Positions 13,866-52,900 of a DNA stretch of 64,000 nucleotides are shown here, in pieces. Numbering within the stretch: position 1 is the first letter of the stretch; the number at the start of each line of letters is the position of its first letter. The stretch is from Zootoca vivipara (taxonomy: Eukaryota), in assembly GCF_963506605.1 (NCBI RefSeq), contig NC_083283.1, forward strand, positions 34,782,001 through 34,846,000, written 5' to 3'. Under the pieces are notes generated by a model. The model worked only from the letters and a program-made list of their open reading frames with translations, searched no databases and was not told the DNA's origin. The translations under genes and the position numbers were made by a program.

Positions 13866-14787
13866 TCATTCCTTCAGTAGCACCTTAAAGACCAACTAAG
13901 TTTTTATTTTGGTATGAGCTTTCGTGTGCATGCACACTTCTTCAGATACAGTGAAATGGAAGTTTCCAGGCACTTATGTAGAGAAGGGGTGGGGAGGGGT
14001 GGGGATGGGGAGGGGGGATCACTCAGAAGGGTGGTGGAAATGGGTGATTGACTGACTGATAGCTGTTGATGACCGCAAACGACTGCAAATGGTTTTGCAT
14101 GAAAAAGCAAGGGTTGAGATGGCTGAAGATCGCTTATCATGTATAATGAGATAAGAACCCGATATCTCTGTTCAAACCAGGTCCCTCCATGGTTCTGAGC
14201 TTGGTGATAAGTTGCAATTCAGCAACTTCTCTTTCCAGTCTATTTCTGAAATTCTTTTGTAGTAAGACAGCTACTTTGAGATCTTGTATAGAATGTCCTG
14301 GGAGATTGAAGTGTTCTCCTACTGGTTTTTCTGTCTTCTGGTTCCTGATGTCAGATTTATGTCCATTTATCCTTTGGCGTAGGGTTTGGCCTGTTTGTCC
14401 AATATAGAGAGCTGAAGGGCACTGTTGGCATTTGATGGCATACACAATGTTAGAGGATGAGCAATTAAATAGTCCTGAGATGGTATGTTGGATGTTGTTG
14501 GGGCCAGTAATGGTGTTGTCTGGGTGTATGTGGCAGCAAAGTTGGCATCTGGGTTTATTGCAGGCTCTGGTACCAGTGTCCATGTTAAGTCTGGTGGTTG
14601 TATTATTGTGGGTGAGGAGTTGTTTAAGATTGGGTGGCTGTCTGTAGGCAATGAAAGGTCTTCCTCCCAGAGCTTGAGAAAGGGAGCGGTCATTGTCCAG
14701 GAGAGGCTGTAGATCTCTGATGATGCGTTGTACTGTTTTAGCTGGTTTCATGCAAAACCAGCTCCCAAGCTAAAACAGTACAACGCA
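13866..14787 (-). mobile_element. Penelope-like element, 5'-truncated: GIY-YIG endonuclease region plus pseudo-LTR
   Basis: ORF 14137-14751 contains CNKPRCQLC and NIVYAIKCQQCPSALYIGQTGQTLRQRINGH (GIY-YIG); typical pLTR TAGCACCTTAAAGACCAACTAAG. Confidence 0.93.
13912..13949 (-). ncRNA. Minimal type I hammerhead ribozyme motif in Penelope pLTR
   Basis: Minus-strand RNA GUAU-CUGAAGA-A-GUGUG(CAUG)CACAC-GAAA-GC-UC-AUAC: conserved CUGANGA, GAAA and UH boxes, stem I GUAU/AUAC, stem II, palindromic minimal stem III AGCU. Confidence 0.8.
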
Positions 14788-15930
14788 ACTCAATGAAAAC
14801 CATCAGCTGTGCGTCAATGGGGATTGGAATAGGGCAGGTCACAGAGAAGATGTGTTTCCTTCTCGTGACTTGTTCCCATAAGTCAGCATAAAGACATTGC
14901 TTCTCTTGGTGAGAAGGTAAAGACTATGCATTCATAGCAATAATTGCTTTTCTAATTCATTGCAAATATTTGAGAGCAGCAGTTCTAACACAAATAAATA
15001 GGTCAGCCTTCTGCTGAGAGAAGGTTCAACGTAACTACTAACAAAGGCATTGCTTTAAAGTCTGTGTTAAGGTCTCAGAAACCCTGAAAGGGCAGAAAAC
15101 TGTTTGGAAACAGTTTGTGTCCCCCACGGCCCCACCCTGTATTCAATATTCATCTATTGTTTTGCCTTCTGCTCTGTCAAAAACGATATTTAAAACATCG
15201 TGCCGGAAACTAAACCATTGTGGGTTGTTTTATCCTTCATGATGCCATGAATTATTCATATTATTTGATTTAATGTAATCACTTTCTTTCCTGTATTAAG
15301 TTTCTGTGAATGGTCTCCTATGCAGCTACAATTTAAAGGAACTTTATAGACAGTACTAGTGGGGAAAGCAACTGGCATTAACTGACAGTGAATTAGGCTT
15401 AGTGTCAGTTTGGGTGGGTGGGGACACAAACTTTGTAATTTAATTCTTAATCATATGTATATCCTGATTCCAATGGATGTCTCATGGTGTGTGCATGTCA
15501 GGGGCGAGTTGACATTGAAAACAACTGGAGACATAGGTAAATGAAAGTCAGACAGAGTTATGGAACCCACTGAGGATGATGCAAACACTCAACTGCAGAA
15601 CAGTATTTTGTCCTATGTTCATTCAGCACCAGGAATTATTTTGAACACCCATTAGCTCGCTCTTTCTTTCTTTCTTTCTTTGGAAGAATCAAGAAGTTAG
15701 GAAAGGGGGGAGGACTTGCTAATTGCACCAATTTTGTGCAAATTCACCCTTTTAGCAGATACAATAATTTAACCTGCTCTAAGTTGTTCGCGACTGGACT
15801 TAATTGTCAGCGGTCCCTTTACCTTTAAAGCTGAGTAAAGGACACTGGTTTCCTGTTTTAAAAGATTTGTACCTCTGATATTTCAGCTAGCAGAACTCAC
15901 AAGAATTAATGTTTTGGATATGTAGTTATT

Positions 15931-17081
15931 TCCCAGAAGTGCAAGCTGGATTTCAAAGGAACAGAGGAACTAGAGACCAAATTGCAAACATGCACTGGAT
16001 TATGGAGAAAGCTAGAGAGTTCCAGAAAAACATCTACTTCTGCTTCATTGACTATGCAAAAGCCTTTGACTGTGTCGACCACAGCAAACTATGGCAAGTT
16101 CTTAAAGAAATGGGAGTGCCTGATCACCTCATCTGTCTCCTGAGAAATCTCTATGTGGGACAAGAAGCTACAGTTAGAACTGGATATGGAACAACTGATT
16201 GGTTCAAAATTGGGAAAGGAGTATGACAAGGCTGTATATTGTCTCCCTGCTTATTTAACTTATATGCAGAATTCATCATGCGAAAGGCTGGGCTGGGTGA
16301 ATCCCAAACTGGAATTAAGATTGCCAGAAGAAATATCAACAACCTCAGATATGCAGATGACACAACCTTGATGGCAGAAAGTGAGGAGGAATCAAAGAAC
16401 CTTTTAATAAGGGTGAAAGAGGTCCCATCACCTCCTGGTCCCATCACCTCCTGGCAAATAGAAGGGGAAGAAATGGAGGCAGTGAGAGATTTTACCTTCT
16501 TGGGTTCCATGATCACTGCAGATGGTGACAGCAGTCACGCAATTAAAAGACACCTGCTTCTTGGGAGGAAAGCAATGGCAAACCTAGACAGCATCTTAAA
16601 AAGCAGAGACATCACCTTGCCGACAAAGGTCCGTATAGTTAAAGCTATGGTTTTCCCAGTAGTGATGTATGGAAGTGAGAGCTGGACCATAAAGAAGGCT
16701 GATCGCCAAATAATTGATGCTTTTGAATTATGGTGCTGGAGGAGACTCTTGAGAGTCCCATGGACTGCAAGAAGATCAAACCTATCCATTCTTAAGGAAA
16801 TCAGCCCTGAGTGCTCCCTGGAAGGACAGATCGTGAAGCTGAGGCTCCAATACTTTGGCCACCTCATGAGAAGAGAAGAATCCTTGGAAAAGACCCTGAT
16901 GTTGGGAAAGATTGAGGGCACAAGGAGAAGGGGACGACAGGACGAGATGGTTGGACAGTGTTCTTGAAGCCACGAACAAGAGTTTGACCAAACTGCGGCA
17001 GGCAGTGGAAGACAGGAGTGCCTGGCGTGCTATGGTCCATGGGGTCATGAAGAGTCGGACATGACTAAACAACAACAACAA
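15931..17081 (+). mobile_element. Bov-B (RTE) LINE, 5'-truncated, RT region to tail
   Basis: QAGFQRNRGTRDQI...FIDYAKAFDCVDH...NNLRYADDTTL RT motifs; stop near 16224; (AAC)n tail. Confidence 0.97.
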
Positions 17082-36192: not shown

Positions 36193-36920
36193 CATGGGCG
36201 TAGGCAGGGGGGCAGGAGGGGGCAATTGCCCCCCCCTAGAAGCAGGGCCACTGGCCAGCCTGCCCGGTGCCGTCTCCCTTCTCCCTGGCTGGCTGTGGGG
36301 CGGGCGGCGGGAAAGCACCAGAGCCGCGCAAAGCGTTTGGCTGGCTTTCCCTCCCTCCGCCCCACAGCCAGCAAGGGAGAAGGGAGACGTCCCTTCTAGC
36401 CGGCTGGCTGTGGGGCGGGCGGAGGGAAAGCCAGGCAACCGCTTTGCGCGGCTCTGGGGCTTTCCCTCCACCTGCCCCAGCGATTGCAGAGGGGGAGGAG
36501 GGGATCGGAGCAGCTGATTTCGGGCTGATCCTGGCTCCCCCTCGTCCCTTCCGATCGTGGAGGGGGAGGAGGGAGTCGGAGCAGCCCGATTTCGGGCTGA
36601 TCCTGGCTCCCCCTCGTCCCTTCCGATCGTGGAGGGGGAGGAGGGAGTCGGAGCAGCCCGATTTCGGGCTGATCCTGGCTCCCCCTCGTCCCTTCCTATC
36701 GCGGAGGGGGAGGAGGGAGTCGGAGCAGCCCGATTTCGGGCTGACCCTGGCTCCCCCTCGTCCCTTCCTATCGCAGAGGGGGAGGAGGGAGTCGGAGCAG
36801 CCCGATTTCGGGCTGCTCCGATGTGGCCCCGCCCCCGCCCCTTGGCCCCGCCCCTTGCTCCCCGCCCCTTGCTCCCCGCCCCTTGCCCCCCCCCTGATTT
36901 TCATCCTGGCTACGCCCCTG
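36193..36920. mobile_element. hAT MITE (728 bp) carrying a 72-bp tandem array
   Basis: TIRs CATGGGCGTAGGCAGG / CCTGGCTACGCCCCTG; perfect 8-bp TSD CTAGGAGA at 36185-36192 and 36921-36928. Confidence 0.92.
36481..36820. repeat. 72-bp GC-rich minisatellite, about 4.5 units
   Basis: GCAGCCCGATTTCGGGCTG recurs at 36581, 36653, 36725 and 36797 (period 72), with a variant at 36510. Confidence 0.95.
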
Positions 36921-37741: not shown

Positions 37742-38190
37742 TTTCTGAGACTTAACATAAATAAGTATGCAAGTCAGTTTATTTAAAACTTTTTTATTTA
37801 AAATTTATTTTTCTACCACAAAGCAGGACAACTAGAAAATTCAAAATGCCATATCTTTTTAATGGTTCTTAATTTCCCCTCCCTTTCAACATCAGTGCTA
37901 TAGAATGAAGCACTAACAAATCCCATTATGTATTGGGCAAAGCTCGCATGCTTGTTCAAAGGCGATAGTGATCTGTGCCTTTATCAATCACACACTTTTC
38001 ATGCTTAAGCGGCCTTTTCCAAATCCCTCTTTTAGCTACAATGATTGTTAAGTATAGCTGGTTGCTGAAAAGAGGCGAGGATAACTTTAAATGATCTTGA
38101 TTTGCTTACCCTTTCAGTTTTCTTTAACCCACAGAAATCTGTCATACTTAGATTCACAGGATCTTGACAAAGGTTCTTTTTACCCCTAGA

Positions 38191-38296
38191 TAACATGAGT
38201 CTGACCAAACTGCGGGAAGCAGTAGAAGACAGGAGTGCCTGGCGTGCACTGGTCCATGGAGTCACGAGGGGTCGGACACGACTAAACAACAACAAC
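38191..38296 (+). mobile_element. Bov-B 3' tail fragment
   Basis: GGAGTGCCTGGCGTGC..GTCGGACACGACTAAAC(AAC)n. Confidence 0.9.
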
Positions 38297-39364
38297 TTGA
38301 GAGAGGTTTAGGTACCATGAGAGAACTTGAGCAGCTCACTTCCACACTAGATTACTGGGGAAGGGGCATAGTCCACATTCCCATCCTAGCATCTGTCTCC
38401 TGATGTGGTCATCTCACTCTGCCTAGTGACAGGAGTTGGCTCAGTCAGAAAATAAGGCAAGCGGATTAGACTTGGCCTGGAACAAATTACTGAATGATGC
38501 CACAGTTGTTGGGCGTGCTTTGCTTACATAAATAATATTTGTTTTGACTTTATTTGTGGCTTAAGTGTACGACACAACGCCACCACAGAAAATTAAAACA
38601 GAAGTTATATTTAAACATGAACTGACAAGAAGATACAGCTCTAGCAATCAGTGTCAGAGTTAGAGTTACAGCCAGCTCCTGCTGGTCTACCTTTTTGTTT
38701 CTTGACTCATGTAAGAAATCTTATAAATAAAATAAAATAAAGTGAGTAATCGCATTCTCCGGAAAGGGGGGGAGTATGGAAGGTGATCTACCTACATTCT
38801 TGCAAATCATTTTAAATTCCTAAGAGTGGACAAGAAGCTAATGGAAATTCTTGAGTGATGCTTATTAGCATAGTAATTTTTAAACAAAACTTTCCTGGTG
38901 GAAATGGGATAGAAAAGTCAACTTTGCTTTAACCTTCTACACTAAATTTCTCTTCCTTGTTGTAAAAATGATACCAGAAGATTTGTCAAAGTTTGTCTGA
39001 TGTTCCATGACACTGGATCGAAAGTGCCATTCTGCCATTGCTTGATAGTAGCCAGTGCAAAGTAATCATTAAGCAGACAGTATTATTTTCCTAATTAGTA
39101 AAAATAATTTTAAAAACTTTGGATTTCCTGGAGTTCTTTCCCGCCGAGCAATCATTTGATTTTGTTTATATTGACAAACATGCAAGTCGCAGACTGTTTC
39201 TTTAATCATTTGACAAAGGCAAATGTCTTATGCATGGGTTAAAGAAAACAATGGCATCCCCTTGCTCCCGGGTCTCCCTTTCTTGTCCAATTGTCACAGT
39301 GAGAAAACTGTACCAAGTGCAATATTCTGCAGCTGTGTTTTACTATCACTGTTGTAAATATGCA

Positions 39365-39485
39365 TCTTCAGGTCGGACTGAGAGAGGTCTGAAACCCTGT
39401 TGAGCTGCTGCCGGCCAGTGTAGACAACACTTAGCTAAGGTGTCAGTGGTCTGACACAGTGTGAGGCAGCTTCCTATGATCCTAA
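39365..39485 (+). mobile_element. Squam3-type SINE 3' half
   Basis: CTGAAACCCTG...GCTGCTGCCGGCCAGTGTAGACAACAC...GGCAGCTTCCTATG. Confidence 0.7.
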
Positions 39486-40220
39486 GAAAGCTTTAGATGT
39501 TCAGACAATGATGGACATGTCACTTCCCCCCTCCCAACATGAAGATTAATATCCATGTTAGGTGGGGTGGGGGTGGGGAGAACAATTTATGAGGTGGCCT
39601 TTAACCTCAGAGAAACAGGATGACAATTCCAACATTTCTAATGTATGGTTGCCCTTACTTCTTGCATTCCTAGGGTCACCACTTCTGCATCTTCCAAAAG
39701 CAGGAAATTAATCACCAAACAAGAAGACTAAATGTTTGTGAACATATACCACTTTATGAGTCTGCCCTAGTTTTGAGATCTTCAGTGGGGCTTTTCCCTG
39801 GTTTCCTCCCGCACCCACCCTCACAGGGGCATTTGGTAAGAAGATGAGAGAGCCTTCTCAGTGGTTGCTCCCAGATTGTGGAAGTCCCTTCTAGCCTGGT
39901 CCCCTCTCTGATTTCCTTTCAGTGTCAGCCAAAGATAAATCTTTGACCACTAACTTTCTGTTGCAACCAGGGTCTTTTATTGATGCTTGTTGCCTATTTT
40001 CTTCTCCTGTTGTGGTTTTAAATTGGTTTGATTCAATGCTCTTTTTAATATTGTAACTTATCTGCCTGTATTTATTTTAATATTTATAACTGATTGGTGT
40101 ATTTTCTAGCTGCATATACTTATGTTGTGAACTGCCTGGGGTCCTGCGCTGGGAGAAAGGCAGGATATCAAACAAATAAACAAACAAACACAAACGGAAA
40201 CTTAGAAATGTTTATTATAG

Positions 40221-40819
40221 ATTGAGGTTGAATCCTGACAAGACAGAAGTACTGTTTGTGGGGGACAGGAGGCGGGCAGGTGTGGAGGACTCCCTGGTCC
40301 TGAATGGAGTAACTGTGCCCCTGAAGGACCAGGTGCGCAGCCTGGGAGTCGTTTTGGACTCACAGCTGTCCATGGAGGCGCAGGTCAATTCTGTGTCCAG
40401 GGCAGCTGTCTATCAGCTCCATCTGGTACGCAGGCTGAGACCTTACCTGCCTGCAGACTGTCTCGCCAGATTGGTGCATGCTCTAGTTATCTCCCGCTTG
40501 GACTATGCAATGCGCTCTACGTGGGGCTACCTTTGAAGGTGACCCGAAAACTACAACTAATCCAGAATGCGGTAGCTAGACTGGTGACTGGAAGCGGCCG
40601 CCAAGACCACATAACACTGGTCTTGAAAGATCTACATTGGCTCCCAGTACGTTTCTGAGCACAATTCAAAGTGTTGGTGCTGACCTTTAAAGCCCTAAAT
40701 GGCCTCGGTCCAGTATACCTGAAGGAGCATCTCCACCCCCATTGTTCTGCCCGGGTACCGGGGACCTTCTGGCGGTTCCCTCGTTGCGAGAAGCCAAGTT
40801 GCAGGGAACCAGGCAGAGG
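40221..40819 (+). mobile_element. L2 LINE ORF2 internal fragment
   Basis: RLNPDKTEVL...VRSLGVVLDSQLSM...VHALVISRLDY; frameshifted, internal deletion near 40755. Confidence 0.92.
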
Positions 40820-43800
40820 TTCTATTGATCAATTAATGATAAAACCAACTCCATGTTGTGTATATTTTCGCACAGATGCCACATTCAAAGTTATAGTCAA
40901 ACATGAGCTGAAGGGAAAAGCTTTTTGAAAATAACATTACCAGTTTGGGCAAGCAATGAAAATTTCCTGTAATTAAGGATCATGTAAAACTGGGATTTTA
41001 AGTACACATGGAATATTTTGCTATTATCCATATTTTTCCTAGGAGATAATAGTGATAGACTATCATACACAACCACCTTCCATTGCACCTTTTAAAAAAA
41101 ATTATGTGCTTAATGTTACAGGTTAATTGGTGGTGTTTGCAAGCATCTTGTTTTTACTGGCACTTAAAATACACTGCTAGCAAATCAACCCACACCTCTC
41201 CTCAGTCAGCACCCTTACCTCCCTCGTAGTTTGCAGCTGAAATATATTAACAATGAGGGCAAATGAAATAAACCCAGGCAGCCTGGATGTGGGAGAAGAG
41301 GGAAAGGATGCCTGCAAAATTTGTATTACTTGTTTCTCATACTTCCAAGTCAGAGAGATGGGGTGGGGAGGCAACATTCCCCTTTATTCATTTTGTCAAT
41401 AGTTCAGGACGAGAACGCAAGACACAATTAAAGCATATAAGCTGAAAAATCAGGGGCACTACAGTCTTCCATTGCCCAGCCCTGCTACTCCTTTGCAAGT
41501 GGACTAATCCTCAGATGGTTTGAATCTCTCTTTTTTTAAAAAAACAAAACAAAAACCCTTTTCTCTTTTAAAGAAGCATGCTTTCGAATTTGTCTATCAA
41601 ACTGTTCAGAGAGAGGTAGAAGCTAATCGAGAATTTGCTTTCTTTTATTCTCTCGCCAGCAGCCAGAACTCCGTGAGAGACACCTTTCATTGGTTGTTTC
41701 CATCTCCTGTTTGCTGGCATCACAGTACCCTGCCTCCCTGCACCTACATCAACATCACATGTGTGAGGCTGATGGAATAAGTGATCTGAATCAGCCATCA
41801 GAACAAGCAGAGGCGTCAGTACATCAAGAGCAGTGAAGAAAAGGGGGTGGCAATTTTTTTAAAAAAAAAAACCTGCCAAGCATCAGCTGAGCCCTCTAAA
41901 TCTTGATTTTGCACATCTGCAGAAGCATGGAAAGAAATCACTATGCATGAGAAGCACCCTATTTATAACACTCTCACCCTCTTTCCTATGCAGTGTGAAG
42001 CTGTACAGGGATAAGCTTTCTCACCAAAGGATGCTTTTACCGATTCACCGTATCACACTTGCTGAAGGCCAACCTGGAATCCTGATGCAAGCAGAAAATA
42101 TTTTTGTTTCACAAAAGACCTCCACCCAAAATGGCAAAAACAACATTTATATTCCAAAGACATATTTTCCTTGTTAAAAATGTGTTATTGCAGAGGACGC
42201 AATCAAGTGATAACACTGAAAATATTACACAAAAATATCTTATATTTCACCCATTCCCTCGTTCACTAGCAACAAGAAAGTACTGTTATTGAAGTACTTT
42301 CAAAAGACCGTTGCTAAATTGAATTTTTATATTACATTGTACAAGATTTCAGCAGTCATTACAATATTCCTTTAGTCATATATGCTTAAATGTGTCCTCC
42401 AATTTTTGTATGCCACTACAGATGGATGTATAGACACAGATACATATATGAGTAGATATTAATATAACTTATGTGAGAACTATAGTAGATTAAATAATTT
42501 AAATAATTTTGCGTGATTGCTTTTTATTCTCCTTCTACACACAAAGAGTCTTTTACTCACAAAAGGCAGCTCTACTAAATTATTCTGATTTCTCCTTCCT
42601 TTAACCTTCAGGAGTGACCACTAGGGACAGAGAGGGCTATTGTGTAGGCAGATAGGGAAACCCCATTGCTTAAGCTGAATTCCTCTTGCTCTTTTGCGGA
42701 TCCAGCCCAATGAATTCAAACTCAAGCTCACATATTACACTGAACACTGGTACGAGGTGTGAATGAGTGTTTGTTTGGGAAACTGTCTCAGGAGACAAAT
42801 GGCAGAGTGTGCCTTTAGGGGTGAAGTAAAGCCATTGGAGAGTTACAACATACACTTACTGTATATGTACATCTCAACTATTTGTGTACACAGGTATATA
42901 GATTGTTCCCTCACTGGATATGAGCATGCCTTTGGGCACACCGCTTACATTCTACCACCCCAATAAAATTTCCATAGATATGGAAGACATAAGATCATTC
43001 TACTGTGCATCAAGGTATCCAGTAAAATGTTTAAACACACATTTGCATTACAAAGAACTATCATATATGTTTCAAATACAAATGCTTTACAGTGATAACC
43101 CTATAGATTGTACTCAGAAGTAACCCTTGGTAAGTTCAGTGGGACTTACTTCCAGGTAAGCAGGTGGCTGTAGTCCTCTCTGCGAGCACACTTTCACTGT
43201 GGCGCCTCGTTTCTCTGTTCATTACCCAAATTCCATAAGGGAAATTCACATAACATCCCCTCCTTATAATGTGTTAAGTCAATTCCTGAGTCCACGCCTC
43301 TCAACATCAGTGCACTCAACACAAATGCCCCTAGCAGGCACATGTTCAGCATTACTGTGAATGAGCCCTATACCCATGCAGCTGCTTGTACATGCAGCTC
43401 TTACCTGTGATTGGTAACCCTGGCCAATTCATCTCACTGAAATGATACCATGGTAGAACTGTTCAGACCCCTTCCCTATAGATCTGTTCCTTGGGAGCAG
43501 ACCAGTTGTTTATCCCCATTTTCAACCACCCCAGGGAATCCACGCATGGAACTAGTGTCACAGCCGAGGAGCCAGATGGCAGCCTAACATGATCCCTGAT
43601 TGGATTCTGTGGTCACCATCTGCACAAGGGTGAGGTGGAGGAGGGTGATGCTGTTGCAGCATCTCGTACCGTTCTACTTATTTTCAATCAGGTAGAAGAT
43701 GCCTCATATCCCTTCTCTGAATCCTGCCTTGATTACACATTAGTACAGCCCAAGTCTTCCTACTTCTCTGGCTTCCTCCCTTGGTTCCTCAACTATCCAT

Positions 43801-44258
43801 TTACAACAACTGTTTTTTTTACTAAAAGATGGCCCCTTATTCGGTCATTTGTACAATGCCCTTTGGTAGCAGCAACATAGAGTTGATTCAGATTTATCAT
43901 GGGCTGCAGGAAACATATTGTACTGTAATCCCATTCTCCAAAGCCCTTTCCAGGTGTTCCACAAACACATTGAGGATTGTGGGCCAAGCCCCTAAATATG
44001 CTGTCCAATGTCTCCTTCTGTTCTGTTTACTTGTGTCTGGGCCATGAATAGGCTTCCCATATCTTTCTAAACTTCTGTCTCCAATTCATAAGGACTGATG
44101 GTGTGTTTTTAATTCATTCTGCTTCTTGCTGGGTTAAAATTATCTTTCTCACTTGACAAGTCATTTTCAGATATTTAAGCATGAACACAGAGGGTAGGAA
44201 CTGGGATTATGCCCATGGTTCCTGATATCCACACATTAATCACCAAATAAGAAGACAT

Positions 44259-44636
44259 GGGGATGCGAGTGGCGCTGTGGTCTAAATCACTGAGTCTCTT
44301 GGGCTTGCTGATCATAAGGTCAACAGTTTGAATCCATGTGACAGGGTGAGCTCCCGTTGCTCTGTCCCAGCTTCTGCCAACCTAGCAGTTCAAAAGCATG
44401 TAGTTCTAGTAGATAAATAGGTACCACTGTGGCGGGAAGGTAAATTGCATTTCCGTGCACTTTGGTTTTTGTCACAGTGTTCCATTGCACCAGAAGCAGT
44501 TTGGTCATGCTGGCCACATGACCTGGAAAGCTGTCTGTGGACAAACACCAGCTCCCTTGGCCTGAAAGCAAGATGAGCGCTGCACCCCATAGTTACCTTT
44601 GACTGAACTGTCCAGGGCTCTTTTACCTTTACCTTT
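44259..44636 (+). mobile_element. Sauria SINE (Squam1), full length, older
   Basis: GGGATGCGAGTGGCGCTGTGGTCTAAA head to TTTACCTTTACCTTT tail. Confidence 0.9.
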
Positions 44637-44644
44637 TACATGTA

Positions 44645-44921
44645 TTTCCAAAACAATACATGAACTGAGACACAGCCATCTTTTGAAATCCGCACTTGTC
44701 TGCATTTTGAGATGCTGTTCTTCAGCCAAGTAATATGCACGAAAATGCATATACTAAAGAGTGCGTACAAATGCATATATCAGTAAAATCATATACAAAA
44801 TGAGCTATATTTTTCAAAATTGCAAAAATCATTATTATTTATTAAATGTGTATATCGCCCTTCATCTGAAGATCACAGGGCAGTTCACAACACAAAAATA
44901 CAAAATGAGAACACAAAATAC

Positions 44922-44968
<47 letters not shown>

Positions 44969-45172
44969 CCCAATAACCCCCCTCCCACAAAAATGTGCAC
45001 ATTACGCAAAGGTGCACACAAAGATGTGTACATTAGGAGAAAGTCACACTAAACTTCTTGTGAATGTCCATGAAGACTTTTTTTTATTAAAAAGGAACTG
45101 ATGTAGAAATGAATTTCAGATAGGAAAAATTAGAAATGAGAGAAACCCAAACTGACAGATTTGCCCTAGTCT
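44645..45172. mobile_element. AT-rich DNA-transposon-derived repeat with a nested SINE/L2-type tail and (AAT)n
   Basis: Repeated AAAATGCATATA/AAAATGTG motifs and GAGAAACC.AAA.TGACAGAT end shared with 25830-25973; similar motifs at 35075-35330. Confidence 0.5.
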
Positions 45173-46690
45173 ACCACTAAATTCCAATTATTCCTTTTTT
45201 ATTTTTATTTTTTAAAAAAACGAATTTCAAAAGTAACACATATTTGTGGAAGCTTTCAACCCCTCCCTCTTTTCAGTAATACTGATGATGATACCAGCCT
45301 TGCACAGTATAGCCAAGGAGTGAAATAAAAAAAAAATCCTGAGCTACTCCACATCACCGATTGTAGCGTCTCTCTGCAGTCCATTCATCTTCTGTGCTAC
45401 CATTCCTTTCTTTCATTGAAAAGATGCCAGGTCATCAGAAATTCTCTGTACTGACTCAGTGAAAAGTACAGTGCATTGCTTTCTCCGAGGGAATTGTTGT
45501 TCTCACTCCTGCAGCCTGTCTCCTGGCCGTGAGGAGCTGCATTAGGTTTCCACTTCAGTGCAATACATCTCTTTTCCATTAAAAGTGCAATTTGTACAAA
45601 CATCCTTTTATTACTTATCAATTGTTTCACCAGCAAAAACAGAACACAAAAAACTGCAGAGCTTGGTAGAAAAACCGACTGCAGAAGAAAAATCCCAGCA
45701 AGGTTGCAGGGTGTAAGGGATATTATCCAGGATGGTCCTGAATGGGAAAATAGGACCGTTTTGTTTGGCAACCCATATTAAGGGCTTTATTTCATTGGAA
45801 AAGGAATACAGATGTAGACAGGCTAATCAAATCTGTTATGTTGTTTGATCACAGAATAGTCTATTAGTTTCCTGCAGGGCCATATATATAGCATGTTCGT
45901 TTTTCTTACTTGGGTCCATGTGTTCTAAGGATAAGAACCTCTTTGAGGACAAGATGGCAGGGTAAATTCTTGCCTTGATCTGAGCCATTTCACACAGCTC
46001 CAAGCGCATGCAAATCTGGCACAGGATGCCTATGCAGTAGAGAAGTCTGCACTGCAGCTAGAGATGTGGCACGTGGTTTAGGAGAGGGAATTATCCCTTC
46101 CTTTTCTCTGATAATTACTATGCTTCTTGCGGGTGGGGAGAGAAATACTGGGGTGTTGGCTATGGGAACTTCTGTCCAGTCTCCTTAGGCATGATATTGT
46201 GCCTGGGGAAAGTGCAGCTAACAGGCAGAGTGGAAAAAATGCAATTGTTGGATTACAGAGCAGTAAATATGTTGCAGAAGCCTTTGTCATGCTAATTGTC
46301 GAAGCACATGTTTCATCAATAAAGAAGCAAGGTATGCCCAGCCCATAACTTGAAATGTCTGGTGCAAATTGTCATGCTCTGTTCTCCTCTGCAGAACCAA
46401 CATGCATTTATATAGACCTTTCTGCACTGCAATGGCTTTGCTGTAATGGTTTGCATTAGAAGGCTGGGTGCTGGAAATGGGTACAGCTACTCCCTGAGAA
46501 GACCATTGGTCATGATCCAGTGAGGAAAAACCAGCAGCAAACTGTGCAGGGCTGGCCTGCCCCTGCTAACACTGCTGGAGAAGTGAGGAGAAGGACTGAG
46601 CAGCAAAACAGGACAGGCCCATGCTGGGAATGTGTAATAGAATCACAAGCCACTGTGATAGCCAACACAAGTGGTTTGGTTACTCTTTTC

Positions 46691-47059
46691 CAGGGGTTCC
46701 CAGACTACGGCCCGGGGGCCACATACAGCCCCCGAGGCTCTTTTATGCGGGCGGCCGCTCTTACTGGTGCAGTGCAGCATGGCTGCCGACTTCCAACCCG
46801 GAAAAGCGAAGGAAATAGCTTGTGCACACACACAAGCATCATTTCTGGTGTACTTCCGGGTTGGAGGAGGCTTCTGCACATGCGCACAAGCTATTTCCGG
46901 CGCTTTCCAGGTCGGGAGTGTGCAAGAAATAGCATTTGCGCATGGGCGCGCACAGCCACGTGCTCCTGTGCCCCCGCTGCACTCCCCCACCCTCCGGCCC
47001 ACCACGCAATTGGCGCGGCGGGCATCCGGCCCAAAGCCGGGTAAGTTTGGGGACCCCTG
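46691..47059. mobile_element. hAT-Charlie MITE (369 bp, CpG-rich)
   Basis: TIRs CAGGGGTTCCCAGACT / AGTTTGGGGACCCCTG; TSD CTCTTTTC/CTCTTATC. Confidence 0.88.
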
Positions 47060-47120
47060 CTCTTATCTGTTCCCTTCTGCTGTTCTCCTTTAAAACTGAA
47101 GTCACTGTGTATCTCTAGAA

Positions 47121-47329
47121 CAGTGGTTCCCAGCCTTTTTCTTTTGGCCATGCCCCACCTAAGCATCTCTAAAATCCTCATGCCCCCGCCCCCCCATGAT
47201 ATATAATTCTTATTATTCAAAAAGTGATCTCCTATTAACGTGGAGGAAGCCTAAAAGGCCACTCACTATTAATAACTCAATCTTGAATTGCCTCCCTGTT
47301 GGGTGTGTGCCCCACATTGGGAACCATGG
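47121..47329. mobile_element. hAT-Charlie MITE (209 bp)
   Basis: CAGTGGTTCCCA / TGGGAACCATGG; TSD CTCTAGAA/CTCTAGAC (NTCTAGAN Charlie target). Confidence 0.85.
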
Positions 47330-47604
47330 CTCTAGACCCATTCTGGTTTGGTCTCCTCTGCAATACACTTTATACATGATTGCAGCATAATTTATGCATC
47401 TCAGTCCAACACTGACATCTACATGCATGCTATGTTTAATCGTTTTAGCATTCAGTTGTCAGTGGAGGATTATCGCATCCTAAGTTGCTGCTAGCTTTAT
47501 ATGTTGAGATTTTTAGGTTGATCTTTTTCAAGGAACTGCAATTGCACAACATTTACAGCCTCTCTCTATGCATAGAGCCTCAGCCAAGTGATGGCAGACT
47601 AAAT

Positions 47605-47935
47605 GGAAGGAACATAACTCAATGACAGAACACATGCTTTGCACCCAGAAGGTTTGAGGTTCACTCCCTGGCGTCTCCACATATAACTGGGAAACACTGT
47701 TTTCTGAAACCCCTGGAGGGCTACTGCCAGTCAGTGTAGACTGGCTGGTGGGGAACCTGCAGCCCTCCAGATGTTGTCGGATTCCAGCTCCCATCAGTTC
47801 CAGCCAACATGGCCAGCAGTCAGGGATGATGTTATATTCCAGGAGCTTGTAGAGATTCCTCATTGTTGCTACAGCCAATACTCAGCTAGATAGTCCAATG
47901 GACTGACTTGGTTTAAGACAACTTTGTATATTCCA
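47605..47935 (+). mobile_element. Squam3-type SINE with nested hAT-Charlie MITE (about 47742-47870)
   Basis: tRNA-like head (ATAACTCAATGACAGAACAC..GGTTCACTCCC), CTGAAACCC..CCAGTCAGTGTAGAC, insert, then AATACTCAGCTAGATAGTCCAATGG. Confidence 0.7.
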
Positions 47936-48920
47936 TACAATTGGCACTTGCCACGTAATTCCCACCAAGACGACAGCTTCCCACAACGTCACATTCTCCA
48001 GCAAATTAAGAAATGGTGTGCAACTTGATCCATGTTTTGCATCATGGGGCAAACTGCTTCACAAAGCTTTGCTGGACCATCTCATGCTTTCATGGAGAAT
48101 AGATTTTATGAGCCACAATAGAACATCCATGTTCACAGGCTGATGCTAGGAGACAAACAGGTGCAGATGGCTTATTTCTTTCATGCTGAGTTTGTGGACA
48201 CCTGGCTGAGCTCTATGTGCTATTTTGGTCAATGGTAAATTGGTCACAGATGTCAGCTAAGTCAAGGTGTTAGCTCTTCCTGATGGGCCTCTCATTGCTA
48301 TTGCAGTGGATTTTATTTTCATCGCTGTGAAATGGTATCTGTAGCACACACCTCAAGTAAAGGAGATCCCACTACTCTTGACCCACAAAAAGTACAGTAA
48401 AGAAGTTATACACACATGCTTAGAAAGTTATCATTTTCCTCCCTTCCTTCTTTATAATTTTAACCCACTCTTCATCCAAGGAACCCAAAGAGCCCCCTCT
48501 CTCTCTCGCTCTCCCTCTCACAGACACACATTTGAAGGGTGATTTGCAGCCTAATGTGCAATATAAGTGCTATGTAAATATTTACCCTTGCTTTTTAGGA
48601 TCCACCTCATTTCTATTATTGTAAGTTGTTTAAAACTGTTTTTAATATTATATTGTATTGTATTGTAATTGTTGTAACTCACTCAGGAACCTTATGATGA
48701 AAGACGAATAACAGCAAAAACAACAATAGAAAAAAGCACTATAAATACTGTACTAGGGATGTGCATTGGCTTCATGTGTGGTGTGAATAATGAGGTGAAT
48801 TAAGGGGAGGGTCTTTCCACATTCCTGAGTAGGTGTGCTGTCAACAATTTCCTCCCCAGTCAGACCAGAGCCTCCACAAAGGCTTGGATCACTCTGTTGT
48901 TCTGAATAAATATATATATA

Positions 48921-49095
48921 CTAGTATCATGAAGCCCGTTAAATTAACGGGTACTAGAATTAATTAGCGGGGTTCCCCCCCATGACTCACCCACCGCCAC
49001 CACCTCAGCCCCTCACTCAGTCCCTTCCCCGCCCCCCGCCAGCTGCCTCCTCAGCTTCCTCTCTCCCTCCCCATTTCCCACCCTCTTTTTCTACT

Positions 49096-49132
<37 letters not shown>

Positions 49133-49960
49133 CCTCCCTCCCTCCCTCGCTGGTCCCAGTTGCAGCAGCCCTTCCAACCCCCCCCCAAAAAAATCTACAC
49201 ACACTTCCAGGGACTAATTCCCACTTCCCCCGCGGGTGCATCTGCCCGCCCGCCCGCTCTCCTGCTTTTGCCCCTCAGTAATGGCTAAACGATCCTTCAG
49301 CCCAGCAGCCGCATCACTCGTGGCTCGTGCACGCTCTCTATCCACACCCACCTACCCTCCCTTTCCCTTTCGCCAGCACACGCCTGCCTCCTCTCCTTCC
49401 CCTCTAACAGAGAAGAAACCAGGGGAAGAGAGAGAGAGAGAGAGATCCTTCCGCAGCGCAGCAGAGGCAAGGGGAAGCCGCGCACTTTTTTTTTGTATGG
49501 TTGTGTATATGCAAGCATTTAATCTCTCTCACGGTCCTGGTTTATCCCATCCGAAGTCTCTGCGCTCCAAGTCCCAACGGCTGTCCGTAGGGCACATGTG
49601 TTGTAAGGCATATCAGAGGCCTTTAAGACCTACCAGCAGACACAAGCAGAAAGAAAAGGCTGGTGTGAAGCTGCAATCGTTTAAAAAAATGAAAAAGCCA
49701 GAATAAACGCCATTCATCCACTTCCCAATTATTTTAAGCTAAGAAATAGATGAGACAACCCCTCACTCAGCCTTCCAATACAGAATTAAGGAGGAAAATG
49801 AATCTGCTTTAATTCCTCCAAAATAAAGCCCTGGGCCTATTTGTCTGAAGTTTGGTAGGATTAATTCGCTCTGGGGGTGGTGTTGTGCCTGTAAATTTTA
49901 TCCACTTTGGCCAAATGGGACAAAAGTCATCACCATGTTTAGATTTCCTATTATAGTAAA
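48921..49960 (-). mobile_element. Non-autonomous Helitron (about 1.04 kb)
   Basis: 3' end CTAG|T on the minus strand at 48921-48924 with palindrome CCCGTTAA-A-TTAACGGG (48935-48951) 10 nt inside; putative 5' end A|TTTACTATAATAGG (TT rather than TC) at 49960; no TSD. Confidence 0.7.
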
Positions 49961-52900
49961 TGGGGACAGAGCTTCATTTTATACAGAGCAACTTGGAACC
50001 CAAAACCCATATTGAAGAGGAGAGAGCACAGAGAGACTGCAAAACAGGTCAGATTTCTATTTTTTATTTTTTTTAAAGGGCAAGTACAAAGATACAAGGT
50101 GAATCGGGGGGGCATGCACACCTTCAGTATATACACATCCATCTTTCCTCGACACAGGGTCCCTTGATATAATGCCCACGCCACCTTAGCAAAAACAATT
50201 TGAGAGATTTCTACCTCAGAAGGCAAGCGGTGTGACGTCCCCTGCATATGGCCTGCCTTTTATGTTCCCGCTTCACACTCAGACTGACAAGAGGGGCTTG
50301 TGAAGCCTTTTCTTCGTGGCTCCATCTTGACCTTGACCTCAGAGCTTTAGAGAAGGTGGCTTGCATTCGAAGCAGCCATTCTCCACCGTAACTCCTCTTT
50401 TCTTTTGATATTAAGGAGAGTGAAAGGTCATGCAATATGTTCCCCTTCTTAGGTTTAGCATTGGGAGGGGGGAGGGGGGAGTTCTGCTTCTTCCTTTGCA
50501 ATGTATTTTTGCTTGAGTTTTTATTTTGCTCAGGTCAGGTACAGGCAGCATCATTCATTTCTTTCGCTCACATCTTCCTTTTCCTCTTCCCTTCCCAAAC
50601 AGGGAGAGAGAGAGGGAGAAAACCAAATATATATGTGTCAGACATTCAGCTAGGGAAAGACAAAGGCACTGAGTTAATTACCCATCATTTACTGCTGCTG
50701 AGAAGAACAGATGGTAGCAAGCGATATGTGAATGGCATGGGGCAGTGAATTATTCGATCTTTTTCAGATTAATCGCCAATGGCAAAGTAGGTGCTTACAA
50801 GCTGTGACCCTTATATAAATGCATAACATGTATACATGGGCTCTGAGAGGGGGAAGGGTTGTTTAGTTTGTTAAAGGAGTTTAAAATCTTTGGAGGATGT
50901 CAGACACATGAAAGTGGTTGACACAATAGTGGGGAATCACACTGTGTGATTCCCAGCAAATGACATTCCTCTTCAGGTAACTTTAGAAAGCCCCTCAGAT
51001 TTGGGTCGTTTTGCCTGGGCTCATGAACTGGATCACAATTAAACCCCAAAACAGAAACCCATATATTTTGAATGGTTTTCATGAAGGAGAAGGCCGCTTA
51101 CTTGAAGAGTCACTGTGAAGCTGTTGCATGAAACAGGGAGTAGGACCATACCATTTTTAAAAAATTTTTAAAAGCTAATAAAAATAAAGGTTGGAAAACA
51201 ATGACAAATATGATTATTTTGTTGCAAGGCCCTTCTTGGCTGAAGCAGCAAAGGCAAGAAAGGATCAAGGTATTTACTTGCGTCTTTGATTTTTATCATA
51301 TATATATTTAAAAAACAACATCTTTCAGCACCTTTCAAGGTCAGGATGGTATAATTTCCTCTCCATCTTGCTAAAACACCCAACCTTTTTCCTTCCATAT
51401 GGAAGAAAAGGAAGAAAGGTCTATTGCATTTTCAGTTGCATCAATAATTAATTGGTACATGAGAAAAACAGATGCTGTCTTTTGCAGATCATAGAAACTG
51501 CCCCATCATCAAAATGTCTCCAATCACCTAATTATTAAATCTATACAGCGCTAATATTACGGTGGAATTGGGGGGGGGGGAGAGAAGAAAGGGAGGAGAC
51601 GAAGCCAGTGAGCCACAAACACCGTTCCCTGAAAGCCTTCCAATTTACTGCCTTTTCTGACACTTCTTATCTTGTAGGGAAACCATCCCCTTGCAAACAT
51701 CAGGGAGTGGGTGAGTTTCAGGGGGCTTGCTCCGTGCTCCCTCCTTGAATATTCTTCTTAATCAAGCAAATGCAAAGCGTCGCCAATATTGCTGCCTGAT
51801 ATCTTGTCCGTGTGTTGTTGACAGAAGATGCAAGGGGGTGGGAGGGGGCTGGAGGAAGCTGGGGGAATTGGGCTGGAATTGTATTAGTCAGCAGCTCTGG
51901 GTAGTGCATTTAAAACTGCAATCCATTTAGCCTGAATATAGGATTGGGAAGAAAGTGCAGCCCCGGAGAAAAGAGAAGCAGAAACCACTGCAGGAGACTA
52001 GAATTTCCAGTGTGCGGTTTCATTAAAAGCCAGCTTTATATAACACCATCAGTTTAGCTGGTGCCCCCACCCAGATCACTTTCTATATACCATTATGTGA
52101 AAAGATGCAAATAATGCAACAACGCAACACAAACAATGATATGGCTCATGGACTTATCTTACCTACATTAACATCACATTGACTCTGCAAGGAGAAGGCT
52201 TGCATCACTGAGGAACGAAAACAGGTTTGCATACATTTCTCCTTGCTGCGGTTTTCAATTATGAATCTTTCCGGCATCATGGACGCTGATATATATCTCC
52301 TGGCAAAATTAAAAGTAAGACGGTGTTTAAGTCGCAGTGATAACCTGGTATGGGAAGGAAAGGGATGGCCCTGAGTTAGGGAGCTTGAAACAAAGAAATC
52401 ATTTCCACTTTGTGAAATTATAGGGAAAGGAAAAATACCTGCCTCCAACATGGATAATTCAAGCAAGATTGGAAGCGAAATATCCAGTTGGGCTTTGATG
52501 AGCCTTCTGATCCTACCTAGATGAGATAAGGAGGTTCTACTAAAGGGCGCTGTAATGTTTATTTGAACACAAAGGATGGATAATTTATAGCATAGGGTAT
52601 AACTGTACCTGTGAGTGAATATTTATAGCATTTCCTGAAATGTCACACAATCCCTGGCACATTCCAAAAAGCAGCAGCTCTGAAAAAATAAAGAATGGTG
52701 AGTGGGGAGTGACTATTGTCTTGGAAAAGAAATGGTTGGATCAGAATCCAGACAATCTATTTATATATGTTCTTCATGTGGTATGTCAAATTCAGGGGTG
52801 GGGGGGTGGAAGCCATCTCCATGCATTTTATTTTATTTTATTTTGCAGCTTTTTGCTGCTCCAGAAATATTTATTAAGAAAGCTGCAGGTAGCCATTACT

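Follow-up and report, generated by a model that had tools for sequence, protein, structure and literature searches.

A 5′-truncated Helitron copy in the lizard Zootoca vivipara with an interior probably derived from the 5′ CpG island of the girdin gene (CCDC88A)

The closest described systems are gene-carrying Helitrons of bats and of Xenopus. In bats, HelibatN3 amplified the promoter, 5′ UTR, first exon and beginning of the intron of NUBPL to about a thousand copies, and gene pieces are present in 110 of 645 Helitrons; they stem from 54 genes and are biased towards 5′ ends (PMC4224331). In Xenopus, the element Heli1Xen1 carries 19 captured coding fragments, 17 of them from gene 5′ ends, capture having been assessed in X. 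laevis and for coding sequence alone; the same element was transferred horizontally into Lacertidae (PMC12001565). The Helitron-1/2_AC elements of Anolis resemble the family described below in being young and in comprising few autonomous and many non-autonomous copies; they were described as internal deletion derivatives, capture is limited to TE fragments in one family, and the available text of PMC3014272 does not mention capture of host genes. Host-gene capture by lizard Helitrons was likewise not found in the literature searched, which was chiefly open-access.

We analysed 64,000 nt of the Z. vivipara genome (contig NC_083283.1, positions 34,782,001 to 34,846,000 of the forward strand; hereafter the window), in which a Helitron carrying captured promoter and first-exon DNA had been proposed as a candidate for an undescribed system. 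The system is not new, since bat HelibatN3 and Xenopus Heli1Xen1 do the same. Our main reading, to which we assign a probability of about 85%, is that the element is a 5′-truncated, non-autonomous Helitron, that its interior comes from the 5′ CpG island of girdin (CCDC88A), that an older variant of the Heli1Xen1 transposase likely carried it to at least 62 sites, and that the copy in the window is probably silent. The window locus itself is an ordinary broken copy; the analysis extends capture of gene 5′ ends by Helitrons from bats and Xenopus to a squamate. The features of the locus are the following.

48921..49598, minus strand: non-autonomous Helitron copy of the cargo-A subfamily (consensus of ~720 nt), lacking consensus positions 1–66, as delimited by comparison with other copies
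48921..48959, minus strand: 3′ terminal module, common to the sister subfamilies and the autonomous element (92% over 39 nt), ending in CTAG followed by a host T
48935..48951, minus strand: subterminal hairpin with an 8-bp stem, 10 nt before CTAG
48960..48974, minus strand: junction of cargo and 3′ module, where longer copies (A+) hold ~230 nt of additional girdin intron
48975..49553, minus strand: captured 5′ DNA of CCDC88A/girdin in sense orientation, from alignment to the parent
48985..48990, minus strand: GTGAGT, resembling a splice donor (sequence only); the parent, from which it was inherited, has it 1016 nt before the girdin ATG
49554..49598, minus strand: remnant of the ~110-nt 5′ terminal module from consensus position 67 onward, the TC end being absent
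49599..50126, minus strand: start of an old dispersed repeat whose ends resemble inverted repeats, outer end approximate
about 48754..48920, minus strand: last part of the old repeat, outer end approximate

The lizard family shares with HelibatN3 and the other gene-carrying Helitrons of vespertilionid bats its TC...hairpin-CTAG termini (PMC4224331, PMC4778049), the favouring of host gene 5′ ends (in the lizard a putative first exon with donor and intron start), the amplification to many copies, sequential captures and compound elements formed from two Helitron ends. It differs from them in having tens to about a hundred copies per cargo, compared to about a thousand in the bat; in a cargo A that is non-coding and a putative first exon, whereas the HelibatN3 cargo includes the promoter and drives chimeric transcripts; and in the retention of intact, near-identical autonomous copies, whereas the bat Helraiser had to be reconstructed. 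With Heli1Xen1 it has in common a TA-rich 5′ end with TATATAA(A) and a CCCGTTA...TAACGGG hairpin (PMC12001565), and its cargo subfamilies are mostly putative non-coding first exons, in contrast to the coding fragments of Heli1Xen1.

The 3′ end of the copy in the window is as originally predicted: a hairpin, CCCGTTAA-T-TTAACGGG at 48935–48951, is followed after 10 nt by CTAG (48924–48921) and a T. This signature occurs at one site in the window (seen on both strands), compared to 0.05 expected from shuffles, and the hairpin has a folding z-score of -3.2; it is not due to chance. A search of the genome with the last 136 nt gave 454 first-look candidates, and all 40 that were scored match at 88–100%; the 3′ 27-mer with at most one mismatch has 271 matches in the genome, and none for the reversed control. 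The expected multi-copy termini at A|T sites were found: among 63 distinct loci of the cargo-A family, A precedes 41 of 41 intact starts and T follows 51 of 51 CTAG ends, without TSD or TIR. The absence of a TSD at the window copy, the GGGCGG boxes, the GA/CT tracts, the TGACTCA motif and the donor TGG|GTGAGT (GT at 48990–48989, minus strand) were all seen in the sequence as well. Within the junction at 48960..48974 the letters resemble what may be a short re-copy of a hairpin arm.

The 5′ end had been placed at about 49960, and this position could not be upheld: beyond 49610 the window matches none of the 29 other copies, and the proposed end falls inside an older, unrelated dispersed repeat. 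Of these 29, 24 match without a break from 49594–49609 to the 3′ end, interior and donor included. Full-length copies are ~720 nt long and start with A|TCCTATATAAT, and the first base of the window copy is consensus position 67. The TC consensus predicted for the 5′ end thus holds for the family, in which alignment begins at position 1 for 41 of the 63 distinct cargo-A loci, and not for the window copy. Since transposition of Helraiser requires its left end (PMC4778049) and the 5′ TC end is missing here, the window copy is predicted to be immobile. Starts at consensus positions 59–67, at a short palindrome in the 5′ module, were seen in 4 of 62 cargo-A copies (49598 in the window; L004, L008 and L027), where junctions in other subfamilies also fall (L138, L174 and the tail of interior F); this palindrome is possibly a fragile site.

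The old repeat around 49605–50010 gave 205 first-look candidates; all 40 scored match, 39 of them non-self at 68–77% identity, and the repeat, with ~70% identity among its copies, has internal inverted similarity. It picks up again beyond the Helitron at 48904–48749, with ~200–300 nt missing at the site. The presence of the repeat on both flanks indicates that the Helitron sits within an older element. Contigs of a DNA run (X7) cross the two junctions by 20 and 30 letters, against a threshold of 31, which suggests that the insertion is present in a second individual.

As had been predicted, the interior derives from the 5′ end of a single-copy gene. A 316-nt cargo-A query gave 78 candidates; the 30 loci fetched all carry the 5′ module, and the parent ranked 39th of 40. 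A 35-nt pattern, with 51 matches, exposed it. Twelve cargo-A places were then fetched by position (ten from the 51 matches of the 35-mer, together with places from the 316-nt search beyond those listed), and a single one, at G000:C3:109.42 Mb (L142), is without either terminus; it lies in a CpG island. This locus is identical to the cargo-A consensus at 522 of 574 positions and to the window cargo at 509 of 602 columns (25 mismatches, 68 gap columns), in a stretch ~1.0–1.6 kb upstream of the CCDC88A/girdin start codon that includes the donor. On the donor's strand, 1016 nt further on, there is an exon with an ATG, followed by another exon; both correspond to girdin N-termini (Anolis and human). 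An exon further downstream is 100% identical to girdin/CCDC88A of many amniotes; neither Pfam nor PDB returned a match when exons 1 and 2 of girdin were searched by themselves. Five A+ copies match the parent for ~230 nt more, and the girdin locus runs seamlessly past the breakpoints of both A and A+. As in most bat cases, the parent is without a Helitron trace: none was found in the 4 kb read, so that the two-element model set out below stands without its footprint at this locus. A native promoter at the window locus was rejected, the interior being multi-copy and flanked by Helitron sequence.

The interior of cargo A is common to at least 62 copies in the genome. Divergence from the consensus is 1.9% at non-CpG sites (42 copies), which at a borrowed rate of 2.56e-9 (PMC12001565) corresponds to an age of ~7 million years, a low estimate because the best-scoring copies were sampled. 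CpG sites number 27 in the parent and 28 in the consensus, as against 21 in the window copy and a median of 20 over 42 copies; the private differences of the parent are found in none of these 42. Read from the sequences, this pattern would fit a constrained, unmethylated source and decaying copies. The CpG richness attributed to the interior is real and moderate, with an observed/expected ratio of 0.56 and a GC content of 0.61 (48980–49490) compared to a ratio of 0.28 for the window. Between 49430 and 49460 one motif of the window copy reads as in the parent, which is the case in no other of the 42 copies; a neighbouring parent letter is shared with two other copies, flanking sites having the family letter; this is possibly a short gene conversion from girdin, or the mark of an early-branching copy.

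The part of the gene that was captured is of interest, as the interior had been described as promoter and first-exon DNA. All five captured stretches traced in this study (see below) are G-skewed on the host-gene strand (GC skew 0.43, 0.32, 0.31, 0.13 and 0.05), and the upstream stretches left behind are C-skewed in four of five. A change to G-skew is the mark of DNA that lies immediately downstream of a CpG-island start. Cargo A begins ~150 nt inside the CpG island of its parent, and in interiors C and D the CCAAT and GC boxes stay in the parent, outside the captured stretch. The G-skew and the start inside the island lead us to read the cargo as a first exon plus the start of an intron; 48975..49553 would then likely consist of a non-coding first exon, the donor and the first ~15 nt of the intron, "first exon" being understood here from G-skew, CpG island and position. 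A mapped transcription start of girdin was not found in the literature, chiefly open-access. The earlier description is supported as to host gene 5′ DNA and unsupported as to a working promoter, the stretch being G-skewed and beginning inside the island. Four of the five cargoes are sense-oriented with a donor-like site. In the window the strength of this site is ordinary: 34 of 3340 minus-strand GT sites score equally well, and ten acceptor-like sites in 38000–48900 score at least as high as 43619, both counts being from a crude, self-made matrix.

Cargo A is one of several interiors that share their ends. With the first 106 nt of a full copy as query, 1944 candidates were obtained, and 30 loci were fetched; the ~110-nt 5′ module is present in all and the ~40-nt 3′ module in most, and the interiors vary (10 A, 11 B, 3 C, 3 D, 2 E and 1 F among these loci picked by their 5′ end). 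All six interiors are GC- and CpG-rich (GC 0.61–0.74, CpG observed/expected 0.61–1.18). For D, the parent is the only one of 30 loci without both termini (L131), lies in a CpG island and has downstream exons of CDON; it is identical to the D consensus at 352 of 373 positions, with an inverted upstream piece at 50 of 52, and the first exon of CDON was found 32.6 kb away. For C, captured in antisense, the parent is again the only terminus-free locus of 30 (L172), in a CpG island upstream of exons with a CortBP2 domain, which we take to be those of CTTNBP2NL. A terminus-free CpG island upstream of FANCC exons (L190) is the parent of F beyond its first ~180 nt. The parent of E, the only one of 39 loci without termini (L338), is a CpG island upstream of promethin-domain exons, head-to-head with a dynein heavy chain 3-like gene. 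Interior C opens with the first 84 nt of E, which indicates that captures were sequential. For interior B no host parent was found: the 30 loci fetched (from 72 candidates, 40 of which were scored) each carry the 5′ module, and part of B is ~80% similar to the 5′ repeats of the autonomous element itself. The links of the parental CpG islands to coding exons are drawn from position and strand. Five different interiors thus lead each to one different gene 5′ end, so that one Helitron family whose members share their termini has five named parent genes. Every one of the five traced cargoes stems from the CpG-island start of a gene; PMC12001565 calls this bias unexplained.

Five further loci (L137, L139, L140, L231 and L082) have the shared termini and mosaic interiors, in which the head of D or F is followed by new CpG-rich or intronic DNA; additional captured genes are likely among such elements. 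A Helitron lies directly beside the 3′ end of another, or nested within ~30 nt, at L017, L322 and L090, an arrangement of the kind that yields compound elements. About 200 nt of FANCC first exon with its donor also occur within a second, unrelated repeat (L193–L218, e.g. G000:C16:18771893-18772094) with inverted ends like those of Tc1/mariner MITEs, at 26 of 30 loci, six of which were read. The MITE pieces share with the Helitron F copies a short insertion that is absent from the parent, and may therefore have been relayed from Helitron to MITE.

Cargo copies are dispersed in the genome, which also contains an autonomous RepHel partner whose ends are related. A genome search with PF14214 gave 24 matches from 33 candidates, eight of them in intact RepHel frames of 1658 aa. 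The five intact copies that were fetched (L249–L253, e.g. G000:C1:43679399-43685978) are 6.58 kb long and 99.86–100% identical, extend from A|TCCTATATAATAA to CTAG|T, and include two on C1 that lie ~10 kb apart in opposite orientation; the near-identical elements of this type, at least eight in number, are likely to have been active recently, or to be so still. Their protein is identical to one named for Zootoca vivipara, and shares a 90% cluster with LOC108706566 of X. laevis, the transposase of Heli1Xen1, at 91.9% identity over 1401 aa; this is an amino-acid value, whereas the 81–100% range of PMC12001565 is in nucleotides. Similarity to the cargo family is 92% in the 3′ module and about 77–84% in the 5′ module. 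The cargo subfamilies, ~1.9% from consensus, are older than the present master, with less than 0.2% between copies. Among the older RepHel regions fetched, one broken copy (L284), 93–97% similar to the master, clearly has the 5′ module of the cargo family (92%), and would fit an earlier Helitron wave as the one that mobilised the cargo family.

The origin of cargo A can be pictured as follows. A Helitron 5′ module of ~115 nt would have joined the putative girdin first exon at a short microhomology (CGGA); there, ...ACTTCGGACGG of the short progenitor and ...GGCGGAGG of the parent both lead into a shared GATAAACC (4-nt microhomology). The unit would then have acquired its 3′ end from a second short Helitron. 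In the A+ copies the 5′ module is followed by girdin DNA (~790 nt) and, after a spacer of ~30 nt, by a complete short Helitron inserted at A|T, which is the compound form known from HelibatN539 (PMC4224331). Internal deletion of this compound could, judging from the sequences, account for the remaining A+ copies and for the main A form, and such a deletion may have produced the compact A form that was most amplified, ~7 million years ago. In the window, the element would have inserted into the old repeat and subsequently lost its first 66 nt with 200–300 nt of flank, a single deletion probably having taken the 5′ end together with part of the flank, to leave an immobile copy decaying by methylation. 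Other capture junctions have microhomologies of 2–6 nt, and D has an inversion; these features could reflect template switching or break repair.

The strongest rival, to which we would give a little less than an even chance, concerns the joining step alone: the capture may have occurred by repair of a break within a Helitron with the gene 5′ end as template, i.e. as filler DNA, with no Helitron ever inserted at girdin. The short microhomologies at the junctions, the inverted piece in D, the lack of a Helitron trace at the parents and the sequential swaps (C being the head of E plus DNA of the CortBP2-domain gene) are all compatible with this. It accounts less well for A+ copies that end in a complete second Helitron at A|T (L068/L090 and L150), the form described for end-bypass chimeras (PMC4224331). 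Young captures with readable junctions, and intact, near-identical autonomous copies in the same genome, make both the mechanism and the exon-trap effect directly testable.

A broader proposal, which we regard as doubtful and put forward tentatively, is that a horizontally acquired and still-active Helitron harvests the first few hundred bases downstream of CpG-island starts, where G-skewed single-stranded DNA in R-loops would invite microhomology-guided template switching. The family would then act as a modular shuttle of first exons (five genes traced, more untraced), with some copies serving as exon traps in the germ line, and with the FANCC first exon and donor relayed to a cut-and-paste MITE and amplified again. 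If this were true, a natural element with eight intact transposase genes in one genome would allow a test of why Helitrons favour gene 5′ ends.

The original prediction went further for the window copy, proposing a minus-strand transcript spliced from 48991 to acceptors such as 43619 or 41282. That this copy acts as an exon trap or promoter, in a tissue outside those sampled (e.g. testis or embryo), appears improbable. Its donor is intact, its cargo is sense-oriented CpG-island DNA, and HelibatN3 does so both experimentally and in bats (PMC4778049). We compared 40800–50200 at 90% likeness with two raw RNA runs of the same species label from one study (~6% of each, tissue unspecified). In these two shallow runs the bins holding 43619 and 41282 have a depth of 0, as have the other unique bins; reads accumulate on repeats alone, depth over the Helitron copy is at most 1.9, and no joint among those listed touches 48991. 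At 49589, 16 of 16 reads of run X11 have the family allele and not that of the window copy. Changes in the window copy affect 5 of 314 non-CpG and 5 of 30 CpG sites, compared to 1.9% and 13.2% for the family, so that its CpG decay is that of its sister copies, and no host coding exon was found in 220 ORFs or by an exon scan that detected the exons of the parents. The proposed splicing is thus not borne out, and the copy is probably silent. One further point in favour of a transcript is a 2752-nt unspliced contig on 41658–44260 from a run of another, related species (X1; RNA by guess). This segment has no depth in the two same-species RNA runs, and the contig is possibly a non-coding transcript or DNA carry-over.

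The weakest alternative, that the interior belongs to the Helitron itself, as subterminal or promoter DNA, and that the girdin match is an insertion that lost both ends or was exapted, draws on the likeness of interior B to the CpG-rich 5′ repeats of the autonomous element and is nonetheless hardly credible, given that the five autonomous copies contain no cargo-A match of 60 nt or more, that the autonomous element has no similarity to the four parents tested, that the girdin locus is seamless past the A and A+ breakpoints, and that five interiors lead to five different gene 5′ ends.

In the remainder of the window, a Pfam search of 220 stop-to-stop ORFs of at least 70 aa gave no host gene, the only domains at or above the curated cut-off being those of retroelements: GIY-YIG at 14140–14769 (minus strand) and RVT at 15891–16964 (plus strand), presumably remains of Penelope-like and LINE elements. 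A weak VIR_N match was rejected as an acidic low-complexity frame, and no exon candidate in the window and 30 kb on each side looked like a protein exon when judged by eye. A CpG-rich tandem array of a 72-nt unit lies at 36481–36895 of the window, with 4.7 copies, 95% matches and GC-box-like repeats of 14/27 nt.
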